NCBI RefSeq assembly: GCF_036971445.1
Contig: NC_091473.1
Coordinates: 204,414,001-204,478,000 of the forward strand
Source of the DNA: Narcine bancroftii
Lineage: Eukaryota
Direction: 5' to 3'
Length of the DNA: 64,000 nucleotides
The position numbers and the translations under genes were made by a program. Below the pieces are notes generated by a model. It was not told where the DNA came from. It saw nothing but the letters and a program-made list of their open reading frames with translations, and made no database searches. This document shows, piece by piece, positions 12,473-64,000 of the stretch. The first letter of the stretch is position 1. Each line of letters opens with the position of its first letter.

Positions 12473-12925
12473 TGCTCTTCACTTCCAATGTCCTGATGGA
12501 GATCCGGGGCAAGGAGGCTAAGCTCTGTACTGACCCCAAAGCCAGTGTCTTCCTGGAGAACCTGCTGAAGGAGTGCGACGGGTCAGCCCTGCGCAGCATC
12601 CTGTCCGCAATCGTGCCCCACCAGGCCCAGCTTGGGTACCACCGCTGTGGGGCGCATGTGCTGCAGACCGCCCTCCTGCAGGTGGCCAGACTGCAGGGCT
12701 CTCTGCAGGAGCAAAAGGAGGAGGAGGAAGGAGAAGGGGGTGGCAGCAGTGAGAGCCTGGAGAGCTTGGTCCTGAAGCTGAGCCGTGGGGTGCGGGCGAG
12801 TTTCCTGGAGTATGCGGAAGACGTCCATGGCAGCTTCGTGCTGCGCACACTGCTGCAGGTCCTGGGCGGCGCGGTGCCAAGCGTGGCAGGAGGGGAGCAA
12901 GGCCCCTCGAAGAAATCAGCCCGAG
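12473..12925 (+). CDS. NOP9: NOP9 exon 2
   Basis: cacag acceptor; HRCGAHVLQTALLQ, acidic EEEEGEG and DVHGSFVLRTLLQVLGG match vertebrate NOP9; donor G|GTGAGG. Confidence 0.95.
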
Positions 12926-12989
12926 GTGAGGCAGGTCCTTCTGAGCCGCAAGAGGATCTTTTCCACTGTTCCCTATCCAAAAACTCCCC

Positions 12990-14225: not shown

Positions 14226-14366
14226 GGGCATCTCTTAACTCAGCTCCTCCAGTTAGTTTCCAGCTGGGTCTCTAGTCATTCGATGGCTGTGCGCATCCCC
14301 TGATCTGCTCGTACTTCCTGCCGCCCCCACTCCTCCCCTGACTGATGGCCCCTGATCTTGATCCAG

Positions 14367-14471
14367 GTCTGGATCCCCGGGGTGAAGTCGTGGAGTTTGA
14401 GGTCCCCGAAGATTTCCTGGACGAGCTGCGAAGCTTCGCTGAGTTGCTGGAAGAGAAAGAGAACCTGCAAG
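14367..14471 (+). CDS. NOP9: NOP9 exon 3
   Basis: atccag acceptor; EFEVPEDFLDELRSF; phase 1-1. Confidence 0.9.
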
Positions 14472-14640
14472 GTGAGGGGCTGGTGTGGGGTGGAGGGAGA
14501 GGCTGGACAAGGTTGCTGTGCAGTGGTCTCCACCTGTCCTGTGGCTGGGCGAGTGGTGGGAGTTTTCCAGATGTGTGCATCACTATCTTCTCTCTCTCTC
14601 TTTCTCCCCCCCCCCACCACCACCCTTCCCTGCCCCGCAG

Positions 14641-14782
14641 TATTCTTGGCCAGCAACATCGCCAGCCTTGTTTTCCAAGTGGGCATCCAGGTTCTGAGCC
14701 GGAGACTCCCAGCAGCTGCCCGGCACCTGTGCTCCACGGTGCTGGAGTCCTGGGGAGCATCGGAACAGACAGGAAAGCGCAG
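14641..14782 (+). CDS. NOP9: NOP9 exon 4
   Basis: ccgcag acceptor; VFLASNIASLVFQVGIQVLSRRLP; phase 1-2. Confidence 0.9.
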
Positions 14783-16486
14783 GTACCTGCGAGCGACCTG
14801 AGGTCGGGGGCCCGCGCTCTTGCAAGATCACAGGCCCCATTATTCTATCTGCGTGCACCCTGGTGCAGTGCACCAATCGTGCCCATGGGCACGGGCCTCG
14901 GTTGCCCTCATGTGCGCGGTCCCTGGCTCCTGTCTCGCACTTGCGTCCGTCTTTGCAAAATCCCTCCTTCGCCCCCCCCCGACCAAGTGCTTTTCTTTGC
15001 AAATGTGCTCCTTGGGCACGTAAGCATGCATTTGTCTGTGACCCTGCCCTGGTTAACGAGGAGCGTTCAACACCGACGCCTCCTTCTCCTTCCCCGGAGA
15101 AGAGGCAATTTACAACAGGTGTCGAAAAGCAAGAGGGATGGTAGGAGGATTGTTGCGGGGAGGGGGTAGGGAGAGGAGAAGAGGCCACCCAAAGCAAGGC
15201 CCAAGTGGGCAATGATTAGAATTGAAGAATGGCAGAGAGTTCGTTGGGGATAGGGGATTTCAAGAGCACAGATATCCTGGCAGGGAGGAGGAAGTGTCAA
15301 AGGCAGCGTCAAGACTGTAGAGTGTTAACATGGGGCGAGAGAAGGCGCAGACTACTTTCTGAATTGGAACACTCATGCAGGAGTTCCCGAAGGTTAATCT
15401 GCAGGTCGTAAGGAAGACATTTCCTTTCCCGAGGTCTAGAACAGGATGGAACACCCAGTAAATGCACAAAAGTGCTGGAAGAACAGCTTCTGCAGCGTCT
15501 GTTAGAGAGAGAGGTGATTGGGGCCTGAGCACTTCATCAAGATGGCATTAACATCGGGCTACGTGTAAATTGGAGGAGGAACACCTCAGCACACTTCAGC
15601 CAGGTGGCATTAACGATGACTCTCCCCCCCCCCCCCCACCCCAATCCCTGTACCTCTTCTTCTTTGAGGAGAGGTACCCCCTTTCCCCATCACTTCTCAG
15701 CTTCTTTCTGTACTACCCTCCCACCCTAAACCCTCCCTCCCCCTCACTAAAACATCATCATCCTGAAATGATCCGAACAGAGCAATTAAAGGGCAAGGTT
15801 CTTATTTGAAGTTGATAATGTGTGACTGACATCTTTCCCAAATGTTTATAAACTAGGGTAAGTCCAGAACGTGAACCAAAGAAGTTGCACTAATTTTACA
15901 TAGAGGGAGAAAACGAGCTCATTTAACTTTAGATCCATGTACTCTATGGGCCACTTTTAATTGCAACAGTGTCGTGCTCTGAAGGAGGGCACATTAATCA
16001 GATCCAAATAGAGTCCCACTCTTCATCCCAGAATGAAAGTTTCAGTTTCGATTGGGAACCCTCCCTACCCCCGTACTGTCCCTCCACTGTTGGCTCGTTC
16101 CCCCCTTGTCTGCGTGGGTTTTCCCCCGGGGGGTGGGGCTCTCCAGTTTCCTCCCACCGTTCGAAACGAACCAGGGGTTGGAGGTTAAGGTAATTGGGTG
16201 GCACGGGCTTGTGGGCCATAATGGCCGGTCACCCTGCCGTATGTCTACATTTTGTTTAAAAATTACATTTATAAAAACTTAAAAGGTGTAGGGGGGATAT
16301 TACAGAAAGGTTCCCAGGTAGGAGGTAGGGGTGGGGCAGGGAGAGTACGGTCCTGTGAGAGGTGGGAATCTTTGCCTCAAGCGTAACCTTGGGTCGGAAG
16401 CTTGGTGTCCAGTGTGGGTGGGTTGGTGGGTCAGAGAGGAATGTAGTGACACCTTGCTGCCCTTGCCCACCACCCCCACCCCCCAG

Positions 16487-36662: not shown

Positions 36663-37068
36663 ATGAAGACAGAGAAGGGGTCCGAGGGAGCAGAGGGGGA
36701 GGCTGGCCATCTTTGGGATGTCTCGCTTGGAAATCCCCGGCACCTGAAGCTCCAGGCGCTGGACTTCACTGACCTGCGTGAGGAGGAGGAGGAGGCAGTT
36801 GGGGATGAGAAGGGTGGGACCGCCGAGCCCCTCTCCCACCCCCCTTCTCCCCCTCTCCCTCCCCCCCCCACCCCTCGGGATCCCCAAGCCCGCGTGGGCT
36901 GGGACGCGCAGGCTGCACTGGAAGGGGATACAGGAGCTGCCTTCCGTCCCCAAGTACAGCCGCTTTGGGCCGTCCACCATCTGGGCCAGACTGGACCCTG
37001 TGCCTTTGGACACCGACCACCTGCGGGATCTCTTCGGACGGAGCCCCAGCGACTTCAGGACCCCTCAG
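36663..37068 (+). CDS. FHOD-family formin exon A (LDFTDL motif, short FH1, FH2 lasso); apparent 1-nt frameshift in the C-run near 36861-36869; 5' boundary uncertain
   Basis: LKLQALDFTDLREEEE-PPSPPLPPPP, then in the next frame RRLHWKG...SRFGPSTIWARLDPVPLDTDHLRDLF, similar to FHOD1/3; donor CAG|GTGAGC. Confidence 0.8.
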
Positions 37069-42066: not shown

Positions 42067-42219
42067 CATGGAGTGGGCCGGAGATACGAGCTCAACGTGC
42101 TGCCAGCGAAGAGGAGCAACATGGTCAATATCGCACTGAAGGCACTGCCAGCCCCACATCTGGTCCATGCCGCCCTGCTCTCCCTCGACCGCTGTGTCCT
42201 GGGCAGGGAAGCCCTGCAG
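42067..42219 (+). CDS. FHOD-family formin FH2 exon B
   Basis: VLPAKRSNMVNIALKALPAPHLVHAALL resembles FHOD VLDPKRSNAINIGLT; phase 0-0. Confidence 0.9.
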
Positions 42220-42892: not shown

Positions 42893-43075
42893 AGACTCCA
42901 GTCCCTTGTCCCGACAGAGGATGAGATTCGGCTGATTCGAGGGGCCCAGGCATCCCACCCGGGCCGGACCCTGGGCAGTGCCGAACAGTTCCTGCTGCGA
43001 CTGTTCTCGGTCCCTCAACTCCATGCCAGGCTCAGCTTATGGGTCTTCACCCTCGACTACGACAGCAGAGAGAAG
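42893..43075 (+). CDS. FHOD-family formin FH2 exon C
   Basis: PTEDEIRLIRGAQ...LGSAEQFLL...ARLSLWVFTLDYDSREK; phase 0-0. Confidence 0.92.
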
Positions 43076-43374: not shown

Positions 43375-43494
43375 GAGATTGCGGAACCTCTCTTTGACCT
43401 CAAGCTCGGTATGGAGCAGTTGGCTGGGAACAAAACCTTCCACTGTGTTCTTGCTACCCTGCTGGCAATCGGGAATTTCCTCAATGGTGTCAAC
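43375..43494 (+). CDS. FHOD-family formin FH2 exon D
   Basis: [16 protein letters not shown]...[13 protein letters not shown] (FH2 GNxxN motif, FHOD-type). Confidence 0.95.
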
Positions 43495-43726
43495 GTGAGT
43501 TTCTTATCCCGTCATACACTCCCGGGGACGGACACAGAGTGAAGCTCCCTCCACACCGTCCCCTCACACACTCCCGGGGACAGACACAGAGTGAAACTCC
43601 CTCAACACTGTCCCCTCACACACTCCCGGGTACGGATATAGAGTGAAGCTCCCTCCGCACCGTCCCCTCACACACTCCCGGGTACGGATATAGAGTGAAA
43701 CTCCCTCAACACCGTCCCCTCACGTT

Positions 43727-46700
43727 GGGAGTCACATGATGGAGTAGTGGCTGGTCGGGGAACTCCAGCCCTCTCCGGAAAAGTTTAAAAAAAACACACA
43801 AAACACAAAGGCACAAACATAAAAATTAAAATAAAGTGAAAGTAAAGGTGGGAAGAAAATGGCAGCGAAGAAAGAAAAGTCGAAAGCAACGGGAAGAAGA
43901 GAAGAAGAAAGAACGTCGGAAGAAGAAGGTGAAGGCCTTACCTGTCCGAGGAGGCCCACTGTGGAGAGAGAAGCCCGCTCCCTAAGGTCAGTTAGTCCTC
44001 GGGACTACAAAAATGGCTCGCGGAGCCAAGTAAAAGTGCGCGATGCGCATGACAAAAAAAACACTGACGGGAGGGGGGACCAGCTGAGGAGTCGATCTCC
44101 ACAGCTGAGAATGACAGCTACAACACAACAACAGGAAGAGAACATAGAAAACAATGAGAACAAGAAAGAAGAGAGCAAAAAGAAAACAAGGAAACAACAG
44201 ATGACCAACCCAGAGGAAGAAGAAGAACATAGAGAAATGGAAAAAGAAGGGAAAGGCAAGACAATGGATATATTTTTTTTAAAGAATATATGGAATCAGT
44301 AAAAGAATGGCAATTACAAGAATTTAGTGAAATAAAAAGAAGAATTAAAAGTACAGAAGAAAAAATGAATAGATTAGAGATGGTCATGTCAGATATAGGA
44401 AAAAGAGTGGACAAGGTGGAAGAACGAGAAACAGCCATAGAAATGGAAGTAGAGGACTTAAAAAAGAAATTAGAAGAATCTAATCAAAAAGTTAAAGAGA
44501 CACAAGAGCTGTTAGCTCAGAAGATCGATATAATGGAAAATTATAATAGAAGAAATAATATAAAGATAGTGGGCCTGAAGGAAGATGAAGAAGGCAAGAA
44601 TATGAGAGAATTTATAAAAGATTGGATCCCCAGGGTCCTAGGAAGACCAGAATTACAGGAAGAAATGGAAATAGAAAGGGCACATAGAACATTAGCCCCT
44701 AAACCACAGCCACAACAAAAACCATGATCCATTTTAGTAAAATTCTTAAGATATACAACAAGAGAAAATATTTTGGAGAAAGCAATGAAGAAAATAAGAG
44801 AGACAAAAAGTCACTGGAATACAAAGGTCAAAAAATTTTTTTCTATCCAGATATAAGTTTTGAACTCCTGAAGAAGAGAAAGGAGTTTAATACAGCAAAA
44901 GCGATCCTATGGAAAAAAGGATATAAATTTATGCTAAAGTACCCAGCGGTATTTAAAATAGTTATTCCAGGACAGCAAAACAGACTATTCTCGGATCCGG
45001 AGGAAGCACGAAAATTTGCAGAACAACTACAAAACAGACAGAGAGATGAAGACATGTAATGAGAGTAAAAATGACCACGAACTATATGTATGTGTGTATA
45101 TGGGTATATATATATATATATGTGTGTGTATGTATATATGTGTGTACATGAGTGTATCCGTATTTAAAGGATCCGTATTTGTATATATATGAAAATTAAA
45201 ATCTTTTCTGGGGGGGGCTGAGTGGGGAGGAGTTACGGTCACTGCGAAATAATTTGACGCTTGCGAGTGAATTCCCAAATCCAAATGGAGAGGGGAGATG
45301 GTTGCCCGACAAGGGATAAAGGGCAACTCAGGAAGGGGAGGGAATAATGGGGTTAAAGAAATTTTAGATAGGAGAATAAGGGAAATGTTTGATGTTTTAG
45401 AAATGTTGTCTTATAAAGTGTTCAAAACAAGAAAGCAGAAATGGATAAGAAGGAAAGGTGATGATGAGGAAAACGGAAAGGAAAGATAAACAAAGTATGA
45501 AATGGTTACGTTGAATTATATGACTTTAAATATTAACGGAATACATAACCAAATCAAAAGGAAGAAACTGCTAAATTTACTGAAAAAAGAAAAAATTGAT
45601 ATAGCATTCGTGCAAGAAACACATTTAACAGAAATGGAGCACAAGAAATTAAAGAGAGATTGGGTAGGACATGTAACAGCAGCGTCATATAATTCAAAAG
45701 CTAGAGGAGTAGCAATATTAATCAGTAAAAATGTACCAATTAAAATAGAAGAGGAAATAATAGATCCAGCAGGGAGATATGTAATGATAAAATGTCAGAT
45801 AATCAGAGTTTTGGAATTTACTCAATGTATATTCATCTAACGAAAAAGATCAAAAATTTATGCAAGATATTTTTTTGAAGATAGCAGACACGCAAGGGAA
45901 CATACTAATAGGAGGGGATTTCAACCTTAATTTGGATTCAAACATGGATAAAACTGGGAAAAAAATTAACAGAAAGAACAAAGTAACCAAATTTATAATT
46001 AAATCGATGCAAGAAATGCAACTTTTGGATATATGGAGGAAACAACACCCAAAGGAAAAGGAATATTCATATTATTCAGGTAGACATAAAACATACTCAA
46101 GAATAGACCTATTCCTGTTATCAGCTCGTATGCAAGATAGAGTAAGAAAAACAGAATATAAAGCTAGAATATTATCGGACCACTCACCCCTGATATTGAC
46201 AATAGAGTTAGAGGACATCCCTCCAAGAATGTATAGATGGAGATTAAACTCCATGCTACTTAAAAGGCAGGATCATTGAAAGACAAATTAAAATGTACTT
46301 TGAAATAAATACGGAATCAGTGAAAGATAAGTTTATACTATGGGACGCAATGAAAGCGTTCATCAGAGGGCAAATAATAAGTTATGTAACCAAGATGAAG
46401 AAGGACTACAATCAGGAAACAGAGCAGTTGGAAAGGGAAATAGTAAATATAGAAAAAGAATTAGCAATGAAGGAAGACACAACTAAAAGAAGAGAATTGG
46501 CAGATTAAAAAAAATAAAATATGAAACACTACAAACATAAAAGATGGAGAAGAACATAATGAAGACAAAACAGAAATATTATGAACTAGGAGAAAAAACG
46601 CACAAAATTCTTGCATGGCAGCTTAAGACAGAACAAAGTAAGAGAATGGTATTGGCATCAGTGAAAAAAGACAAACAAATCACATATAATCCAACGGAGA

Positions 46701-49506
46701 TTAATGAAAACTTCAGAGAATTTTATGAACAATTATACCAAATTGAAAACGAAGGGAAAGAAGACAAAATAGATGAATTTTTAACTAAAATTGAACTACC
46801 AAAATTACAAATAGAGGAACAAAACAAATTAACAGAACCATTTGAAATAGTAGAAATACAAGAGATAATAAAAAAACTACCAAATTATAAAACACCAGGA
46901 GAGGATGGATTCCCAATAGAATTCTATAAAACATTTAAAGATTTATTAAATCCTCTCCTCCTGGAAGTAATCAACCAGATTGATAAAACACAAAGCTTAC
47001 CAGATTCTAGGAAAACAGCAATAATTACAGTAATACCAAAGACAGGGAAAGATCCACTCACACCAGCGTCATATAGACCAATATCTTTACTTAACACAGA
47101 TTATAAGATAATAGCTAAACTATTAGCAAACAGATTGGCCGACTATGTACCAAAAATGGTAAATCTAGATCAAACTGGATTTATTAAAAAAAGACGAACA
47201 ACAGACAATATTTGTAAATTTATTAACTTAATTCATGCAGGAAATAAAGCTCCAACTGTAGCAGTTGCTTTATACGCAGAGAAGGCCTTTGACAGAGTAG
47301 AATGGAATTATTTATTCAAAGTATTACAAAAATTCAGTTTACTAGAGAAGTATATTAATTGGATTAAAGCATTATATAAGGGGCCATTGGCGAAAGTGAC
47401 AGTAAATGGATATATATCAAAGCAATTTAACTTAAGCAGATCAACAAGGCTGGGATGCCCACTATCACCCTTATTGATCATGTTAGCTATAGAACCACTA
47501 GCAGAATTGATAAGAACAGAAAGTAAAATAAAAGGGATAAAAATAAAAGACAAGGAATATAAAATCAGTTTATTTGCAGATGACGTTATAGTATACTTAA
47601 CAGAACTGGAAATATCAATAAAAGAATTACATAAGAAATTGAAGGAATATGGAGAAGTGTCGGGTTACAAGATTAACGCAAATAAAAGTGAAGCAATGCC
47701 AATGAATAATGCGGATTTCTCAAAATTTAAGAAAGAATCACCATTCAGATGGCAAACGCAAGCAATGTGATATCGAGGTATACAAATAAATAAAAACCTC
47801 GGCCATCTATATAAACTCAATTATTATCCGCGAATGAAAAAATTACAGGACAACTTAGAGCATTGGAAAGATTTACCACTAACACTAATAGGAAGGATAA
47901 ACTGTATTAAAATGAGCATTTTCCTAAGGATGCAATACCTATTTCTGGCATTGCCAATACACTTGACGGAGAAATTCTTCAAGGAGTTAAAGAAAATAAT
48001 AAGGAAATTTTTATGGAAAGGGGGAAAACCGAGGATAGCACTAGATAAATTAACAGAATGGTATAAACAAGGAGGCTTACAATTGCCAAACTTTAAAAAT
48101 TATTATAGAGCTGCACAATTAAGATACCTATCAGATATTTATCAAACAAGGGAAAAGCCAGATTGGACTAGATTAGAACTAGATAAAATAAGGGAGAAGA
48201 TACCTGAACATATATTATATAAATGGGATGAAAAATTGGTACAACGTAGGAATTCTCCAGTATTACATCATCTGCTCAATATTTGGAAGAAGATTCATGT
48301 AGAAAGGAATAAAACAAATTACCAATTACCAAAACTAATACTGACGCAATCAGCTAATCCCTTTTACAATAGATAACCTTTCCTTTAGAGAATGGGAGAA
48401 AAAAGGGATCAAAAGAATAGAAAATTGCTTTTCAGGAAATAAATTATTATCCTTTGAACAAATGAAGGATAAATATAATATAACTCAAGATACAGTGTTG
48501 GCATACTACCAACTGAAATCCTACTTGAAGGATAAATTGGGAAGCAGTCTGAGGTTACCAGAGGGAAGTAATTTTGAATATGTGACTACAAACACAATGA
48601 TAATCAAAACATTTATTACAAAAATGTATATTAAACTGCAAGAAAAGGAGAATGAGGAAACAAATGGTAAAACTAAACAAAAATGGGAACAAGATTTAAA
48701 TATAAAGATTAAAAAGAAACATGGGAGAAGTTATGCTCTGGAACTATGAGAAATACAATAAACACGAGGCTACGTATGATACAATATAACTGGATACACA
48801 GGCTATACATTACACCTCAAAAGTTAAATAAATGGGACCCAACAGTATCTGACATGTTTTCGTTGTAAAAAGGAAATGGGAACAACGATTCATGCAATCT
48901 GGACGTGTGAGAAAATGAAAAAATTTTGGGAAGATCTAAACCAGATATTAAATAAAATCACAGAAAGCAATATACCAAAAAACCCAGAGATCTTCCTCCT
49001 AATTAACATAAAAAACAAAGAATTTGGACTTGATTTGGATGGTGCACAAAAAAGATTTGTTCGGATAGCCCTAGCTGAAGCAAAAAAATGTATTATGTCA
49101 GCCTGGAAATTAGAAGATAACTTGAGAATACAACAATGGTATATACCATATATAACATATAATTTAAGAAATAATTTTGAAATATTTGAACAAATATGGG
49201 AGCCATACATGAAACACAATAGAGAAAACCTACCGGGGACATCTACCACCTAAAATGACAGAAGGAGAAGGAAATGAAAAGCATTGACTCAGTGGAATTT
49301 CTTGTTTATTTTTATTGAGTGACAACATTGTTTGACGGGTTTAATGTATTTTAGATTCTGTACTTTAAATGAATGGGAGGGGAGGTAGGTAGGGAGGGTG
49401 GGATGGGAAGGGGGGGAGAAAACGACACTGTATATATTTGAAAACAAAAATGTATGTATCTTGATCAATGTGGTTTATAGTGTGAAAAATAAAATTAAAA
49501 AAAAAA
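43727..49506 (+). mobile_element. Full-length L1 LINE (sense to the formin), ORF1 and ORF2 disrupted, poly(A) tail, 16-bp TSD
   Basis: 5' gggagtcacatgatgg; ORF1 pieces 43859-45059 (NYNRRNNIKIVG); ORF2 pieces 45502-49253 (APE, FADD); AATAAA at 49488; TSD aacaccgtcccctcac at 43708-43723 and 49507-49522. Confidence 0.95.
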
Positions 49507-49899
49507 AACACCGTCCCCTCACACACTCCCGGGTACGGACATAGAGTGAAGCTCCCTCCACACCATCCCCTCACACACTCCGGGTCAGATACAGAGTGAA
49601 ACTCCCTCTGCACCGTCCCCTCACACTCCTGGGGACAGACACAGAATGAAGCTCCCTCCGCACCGTCCCCTCACACACTCCAGGGGACAGGGTCAGAATG
49701 AAGCTTTCCATGAGGATGTTTACAGGGGTAGAGCATTCCAGTAATAAGGAGATGGATGGTGGTCTTTGGAATGAGTATGGGCTGCTGCTATCGGTTGGAG
49801 AGGTGTTTGGTAAACTTGCAGGGGTATGGGCATGTGGGTAGTCTGGCCGTGGGAAGAGGTGGTCTGTGGGGTTGGGAGTAGGTGAGATGGTCATGTATG

Positions 49900-50290
49900 G
49901 ATGGTGTGCTGGATGAGGGGAGTGGTGGTCTGTCCATTGGAGTGGAGGAGGGGTGGTCTGTCCATGGGAGTGAGGAAGGGTGGTTTGTCCCTGAGAGTGA
50001 GGGAGGGAGGCCTGTCCCTGGGAATGAGGGAGGGTGGTCTGTCCCTGGGAGAGAGGGAGGGTTGTCTCTTCCTGGGAGTGAGTGTGAGTGGTCTGTTCCT
50101 GGGAGTGGGGAAGGGTTGTCATTCCCTGGAAGTGAGAGAGGGTGTTCTGTCTTTGGGAGTGGGGGAGGTTGATCCGTCTCTGGGAGTGAGGGAGGGTGGT
50201 CCGTCCCTGGGAGTGGGGTAAGGTGGCCTGTCCGTGAGAGTGAAGGATGGTGGTCTGTCTCTGGGAATGAGGGAGGGTTGTCTGTGGGTT
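49900..50290 (+). repeat. Degenerate ~28-30-bp tandem repeat (gggagtgagggagggtggtctgtccct)
   Basis: Directly visible upstream of exon E. Confidence 0.75.
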
Positions 50291-50341
50291 GTGGTGGGCT
50301 GTTACCTTGCTGTGCTGATCGCTGTACTGTCTCCCCTACAG

Positions 50342-50503
50342 GCCAAGGGCTTTGAGCTGTGCTACCTGGAGCGGGTGCCTGGGGTACGGGACACGGTGAA
50401 CAAGAAGCCACTGCTCCATCACGCCTGCTCCATCATCATCCAGAATTTCCCTGACACCACCGACTTGTTCTCTGAGATCACCGGACTTACTCGCTCAGCC
50501 AAG
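50342..50503 (+). CDS. FHOD-family formin FH2 exon E; the gene continues beyond the window
   Basis: AKGFELCYLERVPGVRDTVNKKPLLHH...DLFSEITGLTRSAK; phase 0-0. Confidence 0.92.
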
Positions 50504-50521
50504 GTAGCCCCAGGGCAGCCA

Positions 50522-50792
50522 TCCCATCTCTCCCTGGAATCGACCCATCTCCCCCTGGAATCGACCCATCTCCCCCCTGGAATCGACCCATCTCCCCCCT
50601 GGAATCGACCCATCTCCCCCCTGGAATCGACCCATCACCCCCTGGAATCGACCCATCTCCCCCTGGAATCGACCCATCTCCCCCTGGAATCGACCCATCT
50701 CCCCCTGGAATTGACCCATCTCCCCCTGGAATTGACCCATCTCCCCCTGCACCCGACCCATCTCCCCCTGCACCCGACCCATCTCCCCCTGC
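50522..50792 (+). repeat. 21-22-bp tandem repeat (cccatctccccctggaatcga) x ~12
   Basis: Directly visible after the exon E donor. Confidence 0.93.
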
Positions 50793-50820
50793 ACCACAAC
50801 TGTTGAAACTATAATTCTTT

Positions 50821-53800
50821 TTTTTTAAATTTTTTTATTTTTCACACCATAAATCACGTTAGCCATGATATACACTTTTTCTTTTTCACACATATACAGT
50901 GACTTTTTCTCCGCCCCCCTCCCTCCTCCCAAGCCACCCCCCCACCCCCCCCTCTCATCCATTTTAGGTATACAATCTAGGTTGCATTAAGCCAGTCAGA
51001 CAATGTTGTCATTCAACAAAAATACACCAGAAATTCTACTGAGTCCATTCTTTTCTTTTCTTCTCCTTCCATCAACTTAGGTAATGTTTGTTCCCGGTAG
51101 GTTTTCGCTATTGTATTTAATGTAAGGCTCCCATACTTGTTCGAATATTTCAATATTATTTCTTAAACTATATGTTATTTTTTCTAATGGGATACATTTA
51201 TTCATTTCTATATACCATTGTTGTATTTTCAAATTATCTTCCAATTTCCAGGTTGACATAATACATTTTTTTGCTACGGCTAGGGCTATCTTAACAAATC
51301 TTTTTTGTGCATCCTCCAAGTCAATTCCAAATTCTTTATTTTTTATGTTACTTAGGAGAAAGATCTCTGGATTCTTTGGTATATTATTTTCTGTTATTTT
51401 ACTTAATATCTGATTGAGATCATCCCAAAATTTTTCTACTCTCTCACATGTCCAGATTGCATGAATTGTTGTTCCCCTTTCTTTTTTACATCGAAAACAT
51501 CTATCAGATACTATTGGGTCCCATTTATTTAACTTTTGCAGTGTAATGTATAGTCTGTGTAACCAATTATATTGTATCATACGCAGCCTCGTATTTATTG
51601 TATTTCTCATCGTTCCAGAACATAATTTCTCCCATGTTTCCTTTTTTTTATCTTTATATTTAAATCTTGTTCCCATTTTTGTTTAGTTTTACCATTTGTT
51701 TCCTCATTCTCCTTTTCTTGCAGTTTAATATACATATTTGTTATAAATTTTCTGATTAACATTGTATCTGTAATCACATATTCAAGGTTACTTCCCTCTG
51801 GTAAACTCAAATTGCTTCCTAATTTATCTTTCAAGTAGGATCTCAGTTAGTAATATGCCAGCGCTGTATCTCCAGTTATATTGTACTTATCTCTCATTTG
51901 TTCAAAGGATAAGAATCTACTTCCTGAAAAACAATTTTCTATTCTTTTAATCCCTTTTTTTCCCCATTTTCTAAAGGAAAGGTTGTCTATTGTAAAAGGG
52001 AGTAGCTTATTTTGCGTCAATATTAGTTTTGGTAATTGATAATTTGTTTTATTTCTTTCTACATGAATCTTCTTCCATATATTGAGGAGATGGTGTAATA
52101 CTGGAGAAGTTCTATGTTGTACCAATTTTTCGTCCCATTTATATAATATGTGTTCAGGTATCTTTTCCCCTATTTTATCTAATTCTAATCTCGTCCAGTC
52201 TGGTTTTTCCCTTGTTTGATAAAAATCTGATAGGTACCTTAATTGTGCGGCTCTATAATAATTTTTGAAGTTTGGCAATTGTAAGCCTCCTTGTTTATAC
52301 CATTCTGTTAATTTATCTAGTGTTATCCTCGGTTTCCCCCCTCTCCATAAAAATTTCCTTATTATTTTCTTTAACTCTTTGAAGAATTTTTCTGTCAGTT
52401 GTATTGGCAATGGCTGAAATAAGTATAGTATCCTTGGAAAAATGTTCATTTTAATACAGTTTATCCTTCCTATCAGTGTTAGTGGTAGCTCTTTCCAATG
52501 CTCTAAATCGTCCTGTAATTTTTTCATTAGTGGATTGTAATTGAGTTTATATAATTGGCCTAGATTTTTGTTTATTTGTACACCTAGGTATCTTATTGCC
52601 TGCATTTGCCATCTGAATGGGGATTCCTTCTTAAATTTTGAGAAATCTGCGTTATTCATAGGCATTGCTTCACTTTCATTTACGTTTATCTTGTATCCCG
52701 ACACTTCTCCATATTTCTTCAATTTCTTGTATAGTTCTTTTATTGATAGTTCTGGTTCTGTTAAGTACACTATCACATCATCCGCAAATAGACTGATTTT
52801 ATATTCCCTGTCTTTTATTTTTATTCCTTTTATATTATTATCTATTCTTATCAGTTCTGCTAGTGGTTCTATAGCTAGCGCAAACAATAATGGTGATAGT
52901 GGGCATCCCTGCCGCGTTGACCTGCTTAAGTTAAATTGCTTTGATACATGTCCATTTACAGTCACTTTCGCTAACGGTCCCTTATATAATGCTTTAATCC
53001 AATTAATATACTTCTCCGGTAAACTGAATTTTTGCAATACTTTGAACAAATAATTCCATTCTACTCTGTCGAAGGCCTTCTCTGCGTCTAAAGCAACTGC
53101 TACTGCAGGTGCTTTATTTCCTTCTACTGCATGAATTAAGTTAATAAATTTACAAATATTGTCTGTTGTGCGTCTTTTTTTGATAAATCCAGTTTGGTCT
53201 AAATTTACCATTTTCGGTACCTGTTCTGCTAATCTGTTTGCTAATAGTTTAGCTATTATCTTATAATCTGTGTTTAGCAAAGATATTGGTCTATATGACG
53301 CTGGTGAGAGTGGATCTTTCCCTTGTTTTAGTATCACTGTAATTATTGCTGTTTTACATGAATCTGGTAAGTTTTGTGTCTCATCAATCTGGTTGATTAC
53401 ATCCAGGAGGGGCGGTATTAATAGGTCTTTAAATGTTTTGTAGAATTCTATTGGGAGTCCATCCTCTCCTGGTGTCTTATTATTTGGTAATTTTTTTATT
53501 ATCTCTTGTATTTCTACTGTTCCTAATGGTTCTGTTAATTTATTTTGTTCCTCTATTTGTAGTTTTGGTAGTTCAATTTTAGTCAAAAATTCATCTATTT
53601 TCCCTTCTTTCCCTTCGTTTTCAGTTCGGTATAATTGTTCATAGAATTCTCTGAAGTTTTCCTTAATTTCTTTTGGATTATATGTAATTTGTTTGTCTTT
53701 TTTCCTTGTTGCCAATACCATTTTCTTAGTTTGCTCTGTCTTAAGCTGCCATGCTAAGATTTTGTGTGTTTTTTCACCTAGTTCATAATATTTCTGTTTT

Positions 53801-56723
53801 GTCTTCATTATATTCTTCTCCACCTTATATGTTTGTAATGTTTCATATTTTATTTTTTTATCCGCCAATTCTCTTCTTTTGGTTGTATCTTCCTTCATTG
53901 CTAATTTTTTTTCTATGTTTACTATTTCCCTTTCCAACTGCTCTGTTTTCTGATTATAGTCCTTCTTCATCTTGGTTACATAACTTATTATTTGCCCTCT
54001 AATGAATGCTTTCATTGCGTCCCATAGTATAAACTTATCTTCCACTGATTCCGTATTTACTTCAAAATACATTTTTAATTGTTTTTCAATAAATTCTCTA
54101 AAATCCTGTATTTTAAGTAGCATGGGGTTTAATCTCCATCTATACATTCTTGGAGGGATGTCCTCTAGTTTTACTGTCAGTATTAAGGGTGAATGGTCCG
54201 ATAGCATTCTCGCTTTATATTCTGTTTTTCTTACTCTATCCTGCATACTAGCTGATAACAAAAATAGGTCTATTCTTGAGTATGTTTTATGTCTAGTCGA
54301 GTAGTATGAGTATTCCTTTTCTTTTGGGTTTTGTTTCCTCCATATGTCCACAAGTTTCATTTCTTGCATTGATTTAATTATAAATTTGGTTACTTTGTTC
54401 TTCCTGTTAATTTTTTTCCCCGTTTTATCCATATTTGGATCCAAATTCAGATTGAAATCCCCTCCTATTAGTATGTTCCCTTGCGTATTAGCTACCTTCA
54501 AAAAGATATCTTGGATAAACTTTTGATCTTCTTCGTTAGGTGAATATATATTAAGTAGATTCCAAAGCTCCGAATATATCTGACATTTTATCATAACATA
54601 TCTCCCTGCTGGATCTATTATTTCCTCTTCTATTTTAAATGGCACATTTTTGCTATTTAATATAGCCACTCCTCTTGCTTTTGAATTATACGATGCTGCT
54701 GTTACATGTCCTTCCCAATCTCTCTTTAATTTCTTGTGCTCCAATTCAGTTAAGTGTGTTTCTTGGACAAATGCTATATCTATTTTTACCTTTTTCAGTA
54801 AATTTAGTAGTTTCTTCCTTTTAATTTGGTTATGTATTCCATTAATATTTAAAGTCATATAGTTCAGCGTAGCCATTTTATATTTTGTTTATCTTCTCTT
54901 TCCGTTTTTCCATCATTACCTTTCCTCCTTTTCCATTTCTGTTTTCTTATTTTCAACTCTTTACAAGACAACATTCCTACAACATCCAACATTTTCCTTA
55001 TTCTCCTATTTCTATCTTCTTTATCCCCAATCTCCCCTTCCCCTCCTGAGTTGTCCTTTATCCCTTGTCGGACAACCACATCTCCCCTCTCCATTTGGAT
55101 TTGCGAATCCACTCGCAAGCGTCAACTGATTTTGCGGTGACCGTTCTTTTCCCCCACCCAGCCCCCCCCAGAAAAGATTTCACTTTTCATATGTCACAAA
55201 GGTCACTCTTTTAATTCCCTCCTTATTCTCTCTATTCCATTACCTTCCCTTATTAATTCTTGTCTATACTATCTATATTTTCCTCTAATTACAGATACTT
55301 TCACGTATGCACATTGTCTCTATTCACTCTTATACCTCTGTACCCGCATACATATCAATCGTGGTCATTTTTACCCTCATTACCCGTCTTCATCCCTCAG
55401 TCTATTTTTGTAATTGTTCTGCAAATTTTCGTGCTTCTTCTGGATCTGAGAATAGTCTGTTTTGTTGTCCTGGAATAAATATTTTCAATACCGCAGGATG
55501 CTTCAGTATAAATTTATACCCTTTCTTCCATAAAATCGCCTTTGCTGTATTGAACTCTTTTCTCTTCTTTAGGAGTTCAAAACTTATATCTGGATAAATG
55601 AAGATTTTTTGCCCTTTATACTCCAGTGGTTTGTTGCCCTCTCTTACTTTTTCCATTGTCTTCTCCAGTACCTTTTCTCTTGTAGTATATCTTAGGAATT
55701 TTACTACAATAGATCTTGGTTTTTGTTGTGGTTGTGGTTTAGAGGCCAATGCTCTATGTGCCCTTTCTATTTCCATTTCTTGCTGTAGTTCTGGACATCC
55801 TCGGGTCTTAGGGATCCACTCTTTTATAAACTCCCTCATATTCTTGCCTTCTTCATCTTCCTTAAGGCCCACTATCTTTATGTTATTTCTTCTGTTATAA
55901 TTTTCCATTATATCTATTTTTTGAGCTAGTAGTTCTTGTGTCTCTTTAGTTTTTTTATTAGATTCCTCCAATTTCTTTTTTAAGTCTTCTACCTCCATTT
56001 CTGCTGCTATTGCCCGTTCTTCCATCTTGTCCATTTTTTTCCCCATTTCTGTAAAGGTCATATCTATTTTGTTCACTTTCTCTTCTGTGTTGTTTATTCT
56101 TCTTCTTAAATAATTGAATTCCTGTGTTTGCCATTCTTTAAATGACTCCATGTATCCTCTAACAAGAGAAAGTATATCCTTTACCTTGCCTTTCCCTTCA
56201 TCTATTTCACTGTATTCTTCCTCTTCTTCTTCCTCTGGGTTGGCCATCTGTTGTTTCTTTGTTGCCCTTTCCTTCTCTTCTTTCTTGTTTCTATTGTCTT
56301 CTGTGGTCTCTTCTTGCTGCAGGTGTTCTGCAGCTGTCGTTGCCGGCTGTGGAGATCGACTCCCCAGCTGGTCCCCCCTCCCGTCGGTGTGTTTTTTTTC
56401 ATGCGCGGTTGCGCACTTTTACTCGGCTCTGTGAGCCATTGTTGTAGTTCTTTTTCTACTGACCTGAGGTAGCGGGCTCCTCTCTCCACAGCGGGCCTCT
56501 TCGGACAGGTAAGGCCTTCACCTTTTTCCTCCGTTGTCTTCTCTTCCTCTCTTCTTACCGTTGATTTTGATTTTTCTTCTTTTGTCTCCATCTTCTTTCC
56601 ACCTTTATACTCACTTTTCTTTAACTTTTGTTTCTGTGCCTTTGTATTTTCTCTTGTTTTTCCCGACTTTTCTGGAGAGGGCTGGAGTTCTCCGTCCGGC
56701 CACTACTCCATCACGTGACTCCC
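50821..56723 (-). mobile_element. Full-length young L1 LINE (antisense to the formin), near-intact, 16-bp TSD
   Basis: ORF1 55402-56247; ORF2 51847-54876 (1009 aa, APE + RT with RQGCPLSP and FADD), then a premature stop and a frameshift before the CCHC tail (51077-51834); TSD gaaactataattcttt at 50805-50820 and 56727-56742. Confidence 0.97.
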
Positions 56724-56949
56724 TGCGAAACTATAATTCTTTGATGTGACCATCACCTCTCTCCCTCTCATCATCCATTATTGCAACAGTCAAATCTGTC
56801 CATGCACCCTCTGGGACCCAACTCTCCCTCCAATGCAGTCATCTCACTGCCTCTTCCAGAGCAACTGAACATTGCTTCCCCAACACCAGAAGCGTTACAT
56901 CTCACCCTGTGCTCACAATGTCTCATTCCTCCTGACACCCCTTCGCCCA

Positions 56950-59900
56950 TGATGGGGCATTTACCCTCGCCCCTCTCCCCCGGTGGGGTGCTGACCCTTG
57001 CCCCTCTCCCCCAGTGGGGTGCTGACCCTCGCCCTTCTCCCCCGGTGGGGTGCTGACCCTCGCCCCTCTTCCCCGGTGGGGTGCTAACCCTCGCCCCTCT
57101 TCCCCGGTGGGGTGTTGACCCTCGGCTCTCTCCCCAGGTGGGGAGATGACCCTCGACCCACTCCCTCAGTGGGATGTTGACCCTTGCCCCTCTCCCCAGG
57201 TGGGATGTTCACCTTCACCCCTCTCCCCAGATGGGGTGCTGACCCTCGTCCCTCTCCCCAGGTGGGGTGTTGACCCTTGTCCCTCTCCCAAGGTGGGGTG
57301 TTGACCCTCGTCCCTCTCCCCAGGTGGGGTGTTGACCCACGTCCCTCTCCCCAGAAGCGGTCGACCACCCCTCTACCCAGCTGGGGTGTTGACCTTCGCC
57401 TCTCTCCCCCGTTGAGGTGTTGACCCTTGCCCTTCTCCCCTGGTGGGATGTTGACCTTTGCCCCTCTCCCCCGGTAGGATGTTGACCTTCTCCCCTCTCC
57501 CCCGGTGGGATGTTGACTGCCCCTCTCCCCAGGTGGGATGTTGATCTTTGCCCCTTTCCACAGGTGGGATGTTGACTTTCGCCCATCTCCCCAGGTGGGA
57601 TGTTGACCCTCGCCCCTCTCCACCGGTGGGATGTTGACCGCCCCTCTCCCCCAGTGGGATGTTGACCCTCGCCCCTCTCCCCCGGTGGGATGTTGACCCT
57701 CGCCCCTCTCCCCCGGTGGGATGTTGACCACCCCATTCCCTAGGTGGGGTGTTGACCCACGTCCCTCTCCCCCGGTGGGGTGTTGACCCTTGCCCCTCTC
57801 CCCAGGTGGGATGTTCACCTTCACCCCTCTCCCCAGATGGGGTGCTGACCCTCGTTCCTCTCCCCAGATGGGGTGCTGACCCTCGTTCCTCTCCCCAGGT
57901 GGGGTGTTGACCCTCGTCCCTCTCCCCCGGTGGGATGTTGACCACCCCACTCCCTAGGTGGGGTGTTGACCCACGTCCCTCTCCCCCGGTGGGGTGTTGA
58001 CCCTTGCCCCTCTCCCCAGGTGGGATGTTCACCTTCATCCCTCTCCCCAGATGGGGTGCAGACCCTCGTTCCTCTCCCCAGATGGGGTGCTGACCCTCGT
58101 TCCTCTCCCCAGGTGGGGTGTTGACCCTCGTCCCTCTCCCCCGGTGGGATGTTGACCACCCCACTCCCTAGGTGGGGTGTTGACCCTCGTCCCTCTCCCA
58201 AGATGGGGTGTTGACCACCCCTCTCCCCGGCTGTGGTGTTGACCTTTGCCTTTCTCCCCCGGTGGGCTGTTGACCCTTGCCCCTCTCCCCAGGTGGGATG
58301 TTGACCTTTGTCCCTTTCCACAGGTGGGATGTTGACCTTCGCCCCTCTCCCCCATTGAGGTGTTGACCCTCGCCCCTCTCCCTGGTGGGATGTTGAACTT
58401 TTCCCCTCTCCCCCGGTAGGATGTTGACCTTCTCCCCTCTCCCCCGGTGGGATGTTGACTGCCCCTCTCCCCCAGTGTGGTGTTGACCCTTGCCCCTCTC
58501 CCCAGGTGGGATGTTGACCTTTGCCCCTTTCCACAGGTGGGATGTTGACTTTCGCCCCTCTCCCCAGGTGGGATGTTGACCCTCGCCCCTCTCCACCGGT
58601 GGGATGTTGACCGCCCCTCTCCCCCAGTGGGATGTTGACCCTCGCCCCTCTCCCCCGGTGGGATGTTGACCCTCGCCCCTCTCTCCCGGTGGGATGTTGA
58701 CCACCCCACTCCCTCGGTGGGGTGTTGACCCTCGTCCCTCTCCCCCGGTGGGGTTTTGACCCTTGCCCCTCTTCCCAGGTGGGATGTTCACCTTCACGCC
58801 TCTCCCCAGATGGGGTGCTGACCCTCATTCCTCTCCGCAGGTGGGGTGTTGACCCTCGTCCCTCTCCCCCGGTGGGATGTTAACCTTCGGCGCTCTACCC
58901 CGGTGGGATGTTCACCCTCGCCCCACTACCAAGGTGGGATGTTGACCCTCGCCCCTATCCCTCGGTGGGATGTTGACCCTCACCCCTCTCCCCAGGTGGG
59001 ATGTTGACCCTCGCCCTTCTCCCCCGGTGGGATGTTGACCCTTGCCCCTCCCCCCAGGTGGGTTTTTGACCCTCGCCCCTCTCCCCCGGTGGGTTGTTGA
59101 CCCTCGCACCTCTCCCCCGGTGGGATGTTGACCCACGCCCCTCTCACCCGGTGGGATGTTGACCCTTGCCCCTCTCCCTAGGTGGGATGTTGACCGCCCC
59201 TCTCCCCCGGTGGGATGTTGACCCTCGCCCCTCTCCCCCGGTGGGGTGTTGACCCTTGCCCCTCTCCCCAGGTGGGATGTTCACCTTCACCCCTCTCCCC
59301 AGATGGGGTGCTGACCCTTTTTCCTCTTCCCCAGGTGGGGTGTTGACCCTTGTCCCTCTCCCCAGGTGGGGTGTTGACCCTCGTCTCTCTCCCCAGATGG
59401 GGTGTTGACCACCCCTCTCCCCGGCTGTGGTGTTGACCTTCGCCTCTCTCCCCCGGTGGGGTGTTGACACTTGCCCCTCTCCCCAGGTGGGATGTTGACC
59501 TTTGTCCCTTTCCACAGGTGGAATGTTGACCTTTGCCCCTCTCCCCCCGGTAGGATGTTGACCTTCTCCCCTCTCCCCCGGTGGGATGTTGACTGCCCCT
59601 CTCCCCAGCTGGGGTGTTGATCCTCGCCCCTCTCCCCCAGTGTGGTGTTGACCCTTGGCCCACTCCCCAGGTGGGATGTTGACCTTCGCCCCTCTCCCCC
59701 AGTGGGATGTTGACCACCCCACTCCCGAGGTGGGGTGTTGACCCTCGTGCCTCTCCCCCAGTTGGATGTTGACCCTCGTCCCTCTCCCCAGATGGGGTGT
59801 TGACCACCCCTCTCCCCGGCTGTGGGGTTTACCTTCGCCTCTCTCCCCCGGTGGGGTGTTGACCCTTACCCCTCTCCCCAGGTGGGTTGTTGAGCTTTGT

Positions 59901-62900
59901 CCCTTTCCACAGGTGGGATGTTGACCTTCGCCCCTCTCCCCAGATGGGATATGACCCTCGCCCCTCTCCCCCAGTGGGATGTTGACCGCCCCTCTCCCCC
60001 AGGTGGGATGTTGACCTTTGCCTCTCTCCCCCGGTAGGATGTTGACCTTCTCCCCTCTCCCCCGGTGGGATGTTGACTGCCCCTCTCCCCCAGTGTGGTG
60101 TTGACCCTTGCCCCTCTCCCCAGGTGGGATGTTGACCTTTGCCTCTTTCCACCGGTGGGATGTTGACCGCCCCTCTCCCCCAGTGGGATGTTGACCTTTG
60201 CCTCTCTCACCCAGTGGGATGTTGACCTTCTCCCCTCCCCCCCGGTGGGATGTTGACTGCCCCTCTCCCCCAGTGGGATGTTGACCCTCGCCCCTCTACC
60301 CCAGTGGGATGTTGTCCCTCGCCCCCCTCCCCCGGTGGTATGTTGACCACCCCACTCCCTAGGTGGGGTGTTAACCCTCTTCCTTCTCCCCCGGTGGGGT
60401 TTTGACCCTTGCCCCTCTCCCCAGGTGGGATGTTCACCTTCACCCCTCTCCCCAGATGGGGTGCTGACCCTCATTCCTCTCCCCAGGTGGGGTGTTGACC
60501 CTCGTCCCTCTCCCCCGGTGGGATGTTAACCCTCGGCGCTCTAACCCGGTGGGATGTTCACCCTTGCCCCACTACCCAGGTGGGATGTTGACCCTCGCCC
60601 CTATCCCTCGGTGGGATGTTGACCCTCACCCCTCTCCCCAGGTGGGATGTTGACCCTCGGCCCTCTTCCCCAGTGGGATGTTGACCCTCGCCCCTCTCCC
60701 TCGGTGGGCTGTTGACCCTCGTCCCTCTCCCCCGGTGGGATGTTGACCCTCCCCCTTCTCCCTCGGTGGGATGTTGACGCACCTCCCCCCAGGTGGGTTT
60801 TTGACCCTCGCCCCTGTCCCCCGGTGGGATGTTGACCCTCGCCCCTGTCCCCCGGTGGGATGTTGACCCTCGCACCTCTCCCCAGGTGGGATGTTGACCT
60901 TTGAACCTTTCCACAGGTGGGATGTTGACCTTCGCCCCTCTCCCCAGATGGGATGTTGACCACCCCACTCCCGAGGTGGGGTGTTGACCCTCGTCCCTGT
61001 CCCCTGGTGGGGTGTTGACCCTTACCCCTCTCCCCCGGTGGGATTTTGACCCTCGCCCCTCTCCCCTGGTGGGATGTTGACCTTTGCCCCTCTCACCGGT
61101 AGGATGTTGAACTTCTCCCCTCTCCCCCGGTGGGATGTTGACTGCCCCTCTCCCCCAGTGTGGTGTTGAACCTTGCCCCTCTCCCCAGGTGGGAGGTTGA
61201 CCTTTGCCTCTTTCCACCGGTGGGATGTTGACCGCCCCTCTCCCCCAGGTGGGATGTTGACCTTTGCCTCTCTCACCCAGTGGGATGTTGACCACCCCAC
61301 TCCCGAGGTGGGGTGTTGACCCTCGTCCCTCTCCCCCGGTGGGGTGTTGACCCTTGTCCCTCTCCCCAGTTGGGATGTTGACCCTCACCCCTCTCCCCGG
61401 TGGGATGTTGACACTCGTCCCTCTCCCCTGGTGGGATGTTGACCTTTGCCCCTCTCCCCCGGTAGGATGTTGACCTTCTCCCCTCTCCCCCGGTGGGATG
61501 TTGACTGCCCCTCTCCCCCAGTGTGGTGTTGACCCTTGCCCCTCTCCCCAGGTGGGATGTTGACCTTTGCCCTTTTCCACAGGTGGGATGTTGACCTTTG
61601 AACCCTCTCCCCCGGTAGTATGTTGACCTTCTCCCCTCTCCCCAGGTGGGATGTTGACTGCCCCTCTCCCCAGTGTGGTGTTGAACCTTGCCCCTCTCCC
61701 CAGGTGGGATGTTGGCCCTCGCCCCTCTCCACCGGTGGGATGTTGACCGCCCCTCTCCCCCAGTGGGATGTTGACCCTCGCCCCTCTACCCCAGTGGGAT
61801 GTTGTCCCTCGCCCCCCTCCCCCGGTGGGATGTTGACCACCCCACTCCCTAGGTGGGGTGTTGACCCTCTTCCTTCTCCCCCGGTGGGGTTTTGACCCTT
61901 GCCCCTCTCCCCAGGTGGGATGTTCACCTTCACCCCTCTCCCCAGATAGGGTGCTGACCCTCATTCCTCTCCCCAGGTGGGGTGTTGACCCTCGTCCCTC
62001 TCCCCCGGTGGGATGTTAACCCTCGGCGCTCTAACCCGGTGGGATGTTCACCCTTGCCCCACTACCCAGGTGGGATGTTGACCCTCGCCCCTATCCCTCG
62101 GTGGGATGTTGACCCTCACCCCTCTCCCCAGGTGGGATGTTGACCCTCGGCCCTCTTCCCCAGTGGGATGTTGACCCTCGCCCCTCTCCCTCGGTGGGCT
62201 GTTGACCCTCGTCCCTCTCCCCCAGTGGGATGTTGACCCTCCCCCTTCTCCCTCGGTGGGATGTTGACCCTTGCACCTCCCCCCAGGTGGGTTTTTGACC
62301 CTCGCCCCTGTCCCCCGGTGGGATGTTGACCCTCACACCTCTCCCCAGGTGGGATGTTGACCTTTGAACCTTTCCACAGGTGGGATGTTGACCTTCGCCC
62401 CTCTCCCCAGATGGGATGTTGACCACCCCACTCCCGAGGTGGGGTGTTGACCCTCGTCCCTGTCCCCTGGTGGGGTGTTGACCCTTACCCCTCTCCCCCG
62501 GTGGGATTTTGACCCTCGCCCCTCTCCCCTGGTGGGATGTTGACCTTTGCCCCTCTCACCGGTAGGATGTTGAACTTCTCCCCTCTCCCCCGGTGGGATG
62601 TTGACTGCCCCTCTCCCCCAGTGTGGTGTTGACCCTTGCCCCACTCCCCAGCTGGGATGTTGACCTTTGCCTCTCTCACCCAGTGGGATGTTGACCTTCT
62701 CCCGTCTCCCCCGGTGGGATGTTGACTGCCCCTCTCCCCCAGTGTGGTGTTGAACCTTGCCCCTCTCCCCAGGTGGGAGGTTGACCTTTGCCTCTTTCCA
62801 CCGGTGGGATGTTGACCGCCCCTCTCCCCCAGGTGGGATGTTGACCTTTGCCTCTCTCACCCAGTGGGATGTTGACCACCCCACTCCCGAGGTGGGGTGT

Positions 62901-64000
62901 TGACCCTCGTCCCTCTCCCCCGGTGGGGTGTTGACCCTTGTCCCTCTCCCCAGGTGAGGATGTTGACCCTCACCCCTCTCCCCGGTGGGATGTTGACACT
63001 CGTCCCTCTCCCCTGGTGGGATGTTGACCTTTGCCCCTCTCACCGGTAGGATGTTGAACTTCTCCCCTCTCCCCCGGTGGGATGTTGACTGCCCCTCTCC
63101 CCCAGTGTGGTGTTGACCCTTGCCCCACTCCCCAGCTGGGATGTTGACCTTTGCCTCTCTCACCCAGTGGGATGTTGACCTTCTCCTTCTCCCCCGGTGG
63201 GATGTTGACTGCCCCTCTCCCCCAGTGTGGTGTTGAACCTTGCCCCTCTCCCCAGGTGGGAGGTTGACCTTTGCCTCTTTCCACCGGTGGGATGTTGACC
63301 GCCCCTCTCCCCCAGGTGGGATGTTGACCTTTGCCTCTCTCACCCAGTGGGATGTTGACCACCCCACTCCCGAGGTGGGGTGTTGACCCTCGTCCCTCTC
63401 CCCCGGTGGGGTGTTGACCCTTGTCCCTCTCCCCAGGTGAGGATGTTGACCCTCACCCCTCTCCCCGGTGGGATGTTGACACTCGTCCCTCTCCCCTGGT
63501 GGGATGTTGACCTTTGCCCCTCTCCCCCGGTAGGATGTTGACCTTCTCCCCTCTCCCCCGGTGGGATGTTGACTGCCCCTCTCCCCCAGTGTGGTGTTGA
63601 CCCTTTCCCCTCTCCCCAGGTGGGATGTTGACCTTTGCCCCTTTCCACAGGTGGGATGTTGACCTTTGAACCCTCTCCCCCGGTAGGATGTTGACCTTCT
63701 CCCCTCTCCCCCGGTGGGATGTTGACTGCCCCTCTCCCCAGTGTGGTGTTGAACCTTGCCCCTCTCCCCAGGTGGGATGTTGGCCCTCGCCCCTCTCCAC
63801 CGGTGGGATGTTGACCGCCCCTCTCCCCTAGTGGGATGTTGACCCTGGCCCCTCTACCCCAGTGGGATGTTGTCCCTCGCCCCCCTCCCCCGGTGGGATG
63901 TTGACCACCCCACTCCCTAGGTGGGGTGTTGACCCTCTTCCTTCTCCCCCGGTGGGGTTTTGACCCTTGCCCCTCTCCCCAGGTGGGATGTTCACCTTCA
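56950..64000. repeat. ~31-bp satellite (gttgaccctcgcccctctcccccggtgggat), >200 units with higher-order blocks; runs off the window
   Basis: Directly visible; diagnostic variants recur at 1490-bp spacing (gttgtccctc at 60311 and 61801; cggcgctcta at ~60534 and ~62024). Confidence 0.97.

Follow-up and report, generated by a model that had tools for sequence, protein, structure and literature searches.

Exons enclosed by inverted pairs of related repeats have been described in several systems. Skipping of TBXT exon 6 in hominoids was observed and needs both an AluSx1 and an AluY (PMC10901737), and across the human genome inverted Alu pairs were reported to be enriched at skippable exons, those with weak 3′ acceptors being the most prone; the same report describes flanking Alu pairs at many constitutive exons (PMC13019027). 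In a ZKSCAN1 reporter, exons of up to 400 nt circularised poorly and exons of 500 nt or more circularised well, a threshold that was context-dependent, and G-U wobbles and poly(A) limited circle formation (PMC4201285). Here we describe a 64,000-nucleotide stretch of the genome of the electric ray Narcine bancroftii (NC_091473.1, positions 204,414,001 to 204,478,000, hereafter the window), in which two full-length LINE-1 (L1) elements, L1-A and L1-B, lie tail to tail around a single exon, exon E, of a formin gene (Table 1).

We found that this locus has the architecture of the loop-out class and is not a working case of it, as the product that defines the class was looked for and not found. The reading that we favour, with a probability of about 0.72, is that two L1s of different age inserted independently beside exon E, that they are predicted to pair, that the exon is spliced in the order D-E-F, and that the pair has no function. 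Under this reading, a large LINE-1 expansion likely left the pair behind as a by-product that does no harm.

Self-BLAST of the window split the inverted match into two alignments, one of 45187-49508 with 55192-50815 (4,382 bp, 87.9% identity) and one of 43727-45108 with 56723-55331 (1,398 bp, 82.0% identity). Global alignment of the two elements gave 5,020 matches, 753 mismatches and 137 gap columns, a gap-free identity of 87.0%, which ranges from about 80-85% in the 5′ untranslated region (UTR) and the first open reading frame (ORF1) through 87-94% in ORF2 to 75% in the last 200 columns; the longest perfect run is 86 bp. Both copies have A-rich tails and each is bounded by its own 16-bp target-site duplication (TSD). 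Each TSD sequence occurs exactly twice in the window, that of L1-A included despite its minisatellite setting. The coordinates given for the pair in the original prediction are correct, and its claim of independent insertions agrees with the separate TSD pairs and the two subfamilies. Its description of the L1s as closely similar holds insofar as they are related, at 87% identity, but they belong to two subfamilies of different age and neither copy is intact. An assembly artefact, in which a single L1 was duplicated in inverse orientation, is ruled out by the 13% divergence and the differing TSDs. A single twin-primed or inverted insertion is likewise ruled out, since each copy is complete between its 5′ end and its tail and has a TSD pair of its own, and the two belong to different subfamilies. 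We also observed that 3 extra bases sit between the TSD and the 5′ end in both L1s of the window, and that TC/AA rather than TT/AA is found at four of the six insertion sites having a clear TSD.

Exon E is bounded by AG and GT, has the phase 0-0 and the 162-nt length that had been predicted for a formin exon between the two L1s, and translates to FH2 positions 222-275 of 372. It is 100% identical to a Narcine bancroftii protein that carries the database label FH1/FH2 domain-containing protein 3 (P0001), and the other three of the four protein matches are FHOD3-like proteins of two sharks and one stingray (80-83%). The FHOD assignment follows the names of all four matches, FH1/FH2 domain-containing protein 3 or 3-like, and the presence of Pfam FH2. 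As for an N-terminal GBD/FH3 region, Pfam gave FH2 only on these four proteins (P0001-P0004), the upstream DNA being unsearched for such exons. The host gene appears to be a short FHOD-like formin, all four cartilaginous-fish proteins having 468-569 aa. Mapping P0001 onto the window and 140 kb flanks gave nine coding exons. Intron D-E measures 6,847 nt, or about 1,050 nt without L1-A, and intron E-F about 36.6 kb, which holds L1-B and, beyond it, about 30 kb of 31-bp units (about 989 copies).

Compared with three other cartilaginous fishes, exons D and E are 80-90% conserved (E 80-83%) and exons A-C 43-73%. With exons D and E the two most conserved of the gene, loss of exon E by skipping would likely cripple the FH2 domain. 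The exon aligns with the DAAM1 stretch after the GNYMN motif, which we take to be the FH2 post region with the actin-binding lysine, here matched by Arg256. The exon E acceptor, a pyrimidine tract followed by CAG/G, is consensus-like as judged by eye.

Pairing of the two L1 arms in the pre-mRNA is a sound prediction. Folding of 48900-51450 as RNA gave 526 inter-arm pairs for 607 L1-A bases, with 49505-50818 as the innermost pair, leaving a predicted loop of 1.3 kb in which 836 nt separate the stem from the exon E acceptor and 314 nt separate the donor from the stem. In the global alignment the arms share 16 perfect runs of at least 30 nt, or 43 paired runs of at least 30 when G-U pairs are tolerated, and 256 of the 753 mismatches would form G-U wobbles. 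No competing inverted match was found in or between introns D-E and E-F. Deleting L1-B in silico did not alter the local structure predicted for the exon E acceptor. The duplex proposed around exon E in the original prediction is in these respects supported as a prediction, with a long stable stem predicted and a frame-preserving exon in its loop, and an identity of 87.0% between the aligned arms is not too low for predicted pairing.

The splicing of exon E was read from assembled sequencing data. Ten sequencing runs contain part of 49500-50850; four of them, from one study with tissue and library type unrecorded, were inferred to be RNA, a guess for which exon-exon joints were taken to indicate spliced RNA. 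In all four, contigs aligned to 50290-50522 cover exactly 50342-50505, and the exon is flanked by the final 30 nt of exon D on one side and by exon F on the other, that is, D-E-F splicing. The four runs contain 5-13% of the words of 49500-50850, about what exon E alone yields. Contig depth at exon E, a poor measure of expression, is 1,310-1,804 in run X7 versus 17-83 in the other three. In X7, one contig begins 709 nt upstream and stops where exon E ends, and the next, 575 nt long, starts at 50476 and runs 545 nt past exon E, unbroken at exon F. A skip kept in the assembly would be expected to interrupt these contigs where D meets E and where exon F starts, and a kept circle to interrupt them at 50342; in X7 they are continuous both across D|E and into exon F. 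Neither a back-splice joint to 50342 nor a D-F skip is present in the contigs of the four runs, from which rare forms would be lost, and poly(A) libraries miss circles. Collectively, these results argue against a major skipped or circular exon E form in the sampled fish, and the in-frame skipped isoform or circular RNA put forward in the original prediction is not supported by contigs that hold D-E-F joints only, rare forms lying beyond their reach.

In X7 a side branch of 33 nt (depth 10 versus about 1,800) departs after 50505. We rejected it as a back-splice, since it follows the reference through 50505 and a back-splice would depart one base earlier. On its sense strand, the 31-bp array has about 200 motifs that resemble a 3′ splice site (a pyrimidine tract and CAG followed by GTG), and splicing into such an array site would fit the branch. 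A coding exon E circle was also considered and rejected; the repeated exon has no in-frame stop, but it has no ATG in that frame either.

Under the favoured reading, L1-A would have inserted first, by target-primed reverse transcription into the minisatellite of intron D-E, and L1-B later into intron E-F, an order that is drawn from their divergence. Both would be transcribed passively within the formin pre-mRNA and then removed with their introns. Pairing of the arms would be possible only once the polymerase is past 50821 and while intron D-E is still unspliced, and for a D-to-F skip the exon D donor would have to stay unused over a further 30 kb of minisatellite. Duplex by-products, such as some A-to-I editing in the stem or a trace of circle or skip, would be minor, and selection on the conserved exon E would keep inclusion high. 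The exon also lies below the 500-nt circularisation threshold of the ZKSCAN1 reporter (PMC4201285).

Next, we compared the arrangement with chance in 1.604 Mb of sequence, consisting of 604 kb around the window and five 200-kb blocks at round positions elsewhere. This sample holds 7 full-length copies, of which 5 are outside the pair, and the L1 family covers 12.8% of the surrounding 604 kb and 0-8.6% of the other blocks. Scaled to the genome, this gives roughly 10,000-15,000 full-length L1s, and uniform placement would yield 12-24 full-length tail-to-tail pairs with a gap of up to 1.5 kb, or 0.7-2.3 pairs with a coding exon in the gap if 150,000-250,000 exons are assumed. The exact arrangement is rare and is expected about once per genome by chance. 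Inverted pairs with arms of at least 2.9 kb within 6.1 kb number 4 in the 604-kb block, this one included, and 0 in the other 1.0 Mb.

Several findings weigh against the favoured reading. Two 300-nt arm pairs are predicted to fold at -327 and -404 kcal/mol, compared with a mean of -84 for 10 shuffles. The geometry is uncommon: in a survey of the 2.4-5.4 kb behind the tail of 40 fetched L1 copies, of which 33 had the 3′ end in view, an inverted L1 followed the tail in none of the 33 and a same-strand L1 in five. On the side of the RNA, contigs lose rare variants, the four runs come from one study of unrecorded library type and tissue, and a poly(A) library would miss circles. Furthermore, the RNA-sampled fish may lack L1-B, as three of the four runs differ from the assembly in exon E. 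The neighbour survey also does not bear out the idea that tail-to-tail pairs are commonplace, other inverted neighbours, mostly nested, being frequent in the local block. Its 0 inverted against 5 same-strand neighbours hint at a deficit of inverted neighbours (two-sided chance 0.06), from numbers too few to show one.

The carriage of L1-B bears on the alternative that survives best, although we consider it unlikely: L1-B would be still polymorphic and absent from the RNA-sampled fish, so that any effect of the pair is allele-specific. The exon E contigs differ from the assembly by C>T at 50372 (three of four runs) and T>C at 50465 (two of four) and at no other position, and the non-assembly alleles carried by three runs fit this explanation. 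X5, however, matches the assembly at both variants and yet shows inclusion. At the L1-B 5′ junction, cover on the unique flank 56739-56935 was zero in DNA runs X1 and X3, in RNA run X5 and in X10, a run of another organism, which speaks neither for nor against L1-B in these samples. The age of L1-B was approached from its relatives. Its 5′ end is 99-100% identical to that of all 39 other scored copies (40 scored of 2,006 candidates), as expected of a young subfamily that could still be polymorphic, while the best other copy for the 5′ end of L1-A reaches 96% (40 scored of 5,299 candidates). Over the full length, substitutions amount to 1.1-1.7% between L1-B and 18 of its 20 nearest sampled copies, and to 2.8-4.3% between L1-A and 15 of its 20, the 7 remaining rows of this 40-copy comparison having been set aside as inflated by neighbouring or rearranged elements. 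L1-A is the older of the two because it is more diverged from its nearest copies and more broken. If 7e-10 mutations per base per generation are assumed, a rate borrowed from another species, the epaulette shark (PMC10587355), L1-B would be about ten million generations old; this age, the divergence of L1-B and the two breaks in its ORF2 speak against polymorphism and would favour fixation. The family also appears to be unusually often complete, as all 20 L1-B-type copies picked by their 5′ end reach the 3′ end.

Rather improbable, in our view, is that the stem is heavily edited by ADAR, which would slow splicing or retain the pre-mRNA and leave less formin with exon choice unchanged. Long inverted repeats are ADAR substrates, and a long imperfect duplex with the 43 paired runs described above is what such editing would act on. 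Against it, spliced mRNA was assembled in all four RNA runs, with high contig depth, itself a poor measure, in one. The contigs of the four runs show no A>G in exon E, a comparison confined to the exon with the L1 arms outside it, and the A-to-G editing expected in the original prediction is not supported by these exon contigs. The C>T at 50372 changes Arg251 to Trp in three of the four runs, at a site where the three homologues have Lys or Arg; it may be either an allele or an editing event.

It is quite improbable that looping of exon E out of the duplex yields, in certain tissues or stages, substantial amounts of an in-frame skipped mRNA or of a circle of 162 nt, as in TBXT. Geometry and reading frame are suited to it, with the stem closing 836 nt short of the acceptor and 314 nt past the donor and with neither intron offering the arms another inverted partner, and TBXT provides the precedent (PMC10901737). 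The contigs of all four runs nevertheless hold neither form, the exon is short and conserved, about 30 kb of minisatellite lie between the stem and exon F, and skippable exons with inverted Alu pairs were reported to tend to shorter downstream introns (PMC13019027). Were it true, a skipped protein lacking the FH2 post region could lower or poison formin activity. The pair would then be a lineage-specific splicing switch of the electric ray, its product being an in-frame formin that is inactive or dominant-negative, or else an exon circle, a proposal that we hold to be just as doubtful; it would mean that whole L1s, and not only Alus, can rewire how a conserved cytoskeletal gene is spliced in a vertebrate outside the mammals.

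Inversion or deletion of exon E by ectopic recombination, in a fraction of germ-line or somatic cells, is very improbable as the main effect of the pair: 5.8 kb of inverted homology 1.3 kb apart, the reported depletion of inverted Alu pairs from the human genome (PMC6961855) and the similar hint of a deficit in our survey would fit it, but the arms are 13% divergent with no perfect run beyond 86 bp, inverted-Alu recombination was reported to drop about tenfold per 10% divergence (PMC6961855), and both TSD pairs are in place, so that the assembled allele is not an inversion product.

Table 1. Features of the formin locus and of the inverted L1 pair (window coordinates, except for exon F, which is given on L004).
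Feature	Coordinates	Strand	Remarks
First coding exon of formin	36663..37068	+	proline-rich stretch and FH2 start; exon start uncertain
Exon B	42067..42219	+	formin
Exon C	42893..43075	+	formin
Exon D	43375..43494	+	120 nt; joined to exon E in 4/4 RNA runs
L1-A 5′ TSD	43708..43723	+	16 bp, within 52-bp minisatellite
L1-A	43727..49506	+	full-length L1 of the older subfamily with many stops and frameshifts; sense to formin, intron D-E
L1-A 3′ TSD	49507..49522	+	16 bp
Predicted loop between L1 tails	49523..50804	+	52-, 27- and 21-bp minisatellites and exon E
Exon E	50342..50503	+	162 nt; P0001 residues 241-294; FH2 post region
L1-B 3′ TSD	50805..50820	-	16 bp
L1-B	50821..56723	-	full-length L1, younger subfamily; antisense to formin, intron E-F
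L1-B ORF2, broken	51077..54888	-	endonuclease, reverse transcriptase, C-terminal part
L1-B ORF1 frame	55402..56418	-	338 aa stop to stop; matches solved LINE-1 ORF1p
L1-B 5′ TSD	56727..56742	-	16 bp
31-bp minisatellite	56963..64000	+	continues about 23 kb past the window, to about L004:3077; occupies most of intron E-F
Exon F	L004:3098-3288		beyond the window, past the minisatellite

Elsewhere in the gene (36663-36880), translation from the ATG at 36663 gives an N-terminus like those of the shark and ray homologues, but its frame is offset from that of FH2 by one base. The frame break lies in or near a C-rich tract and is likely an assembly indel, in which case the P0001 start at 36805 would be in the wrong frame. 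The intron after exon F apparently starts with GC rather than GT (L004:3289-3290).

As L1s, both elements resemble those of other vertebrates. ORF1 of L1-B matches LINE-1 ORF1p (PDB 2ykp, E 2.5e-13), and L1-A aligns to this frame, interrupted by stops; no Pfam match to an L1 ORF1 family was obtained in the frames of either copy. The best PDB match of L1-B ORF2 is LINE-1 ORF2p (E 2.4e-174), R2 reaching only 3e-20, and Pfam Exo_endo_phos and RVT_1 were found in both elements. ORF1p homology, an APE endonuclease followed by a reverse transcriptase, a poly(A) tail and TSDs place them in the L1 clade, the features that they share with vertebrate L1s. They differ in having 5.8-5.9 kb with short 5′ and 3′ UTRs, in that many copies are full length, and in both being broken. 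Neither has the two intact ORFs of an autonomous copy: in L1-B, ORF1 is open and ORF2 has 1 stop and 1 frameshift, and in L1-A several stops and frameshifts affect ORF1 and ORF2.

The closest likeness in splicing is TBXT, in which two retroelements of unequal age and opposite orientation occupy the introns around a frame-preserving exon and a stem-loop is predicted (PMC10901737); inverted related elements predicted to pair are likewise found in both introns that flank exon E. The two differ in outcome, the TBXT exon being skipped and the formin exon being retained in all four runs, and in scale, with Alus of 0.3 kb in TBXT (PMC10901737) and L1s of 5.8 kb here, around an exon that lies in the catalytic FH2 core and is followed by the very long intron described above. 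Mouse Sry is similar in having multi-kilobase inverted repeats around a single exon, the Sry repeats exceeding 15 kb (PMC4201285), whereas the formin exon has 162 nt, no back-splice joint was found for it in the contigs, and its arms, 87% alike, come from two separate L1 insertions. In maize, inverted LINE1-like pairs in flanking introns, with presence/absence variation, were proposed to drive circular RNAs (10.1101/100578). That proposal was based on statistical enrichment and one tested locus in a plant (10.1101/100578), and we describe one vertebrate locus with no circle detected in the contigs.

Within the human inverted-repeat class the arrangement is the same, and inverted L1 pairs were reported as a minor contributor there (PMC13019027). 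Skipping in that class goes with weak acceptors and shorter downstream introns (PMC13019027), in contrast to the consensus-like acceptor and very long intron of exon E. No publication on this locus was found in the literature on inverted L1 pairs with skipping or circles or on the genus, subscription journals lying outside that coverage. As a negative example, the locus indicates on present evidence that an exon can stay in the main mRNA despite an inverted repeat of 5.8 kb and 87% identity at a distance of 0.3-0.8 kb, and it offers a clean and cheap test case for the tolerance of long inverted L1 pairs in a genome with more than 10,000 full-length copies. Taken together, and set beside TBXT, Sry, maize and the human class, the L1 pair is probably a chance-level new example of a known arrangement, without function.

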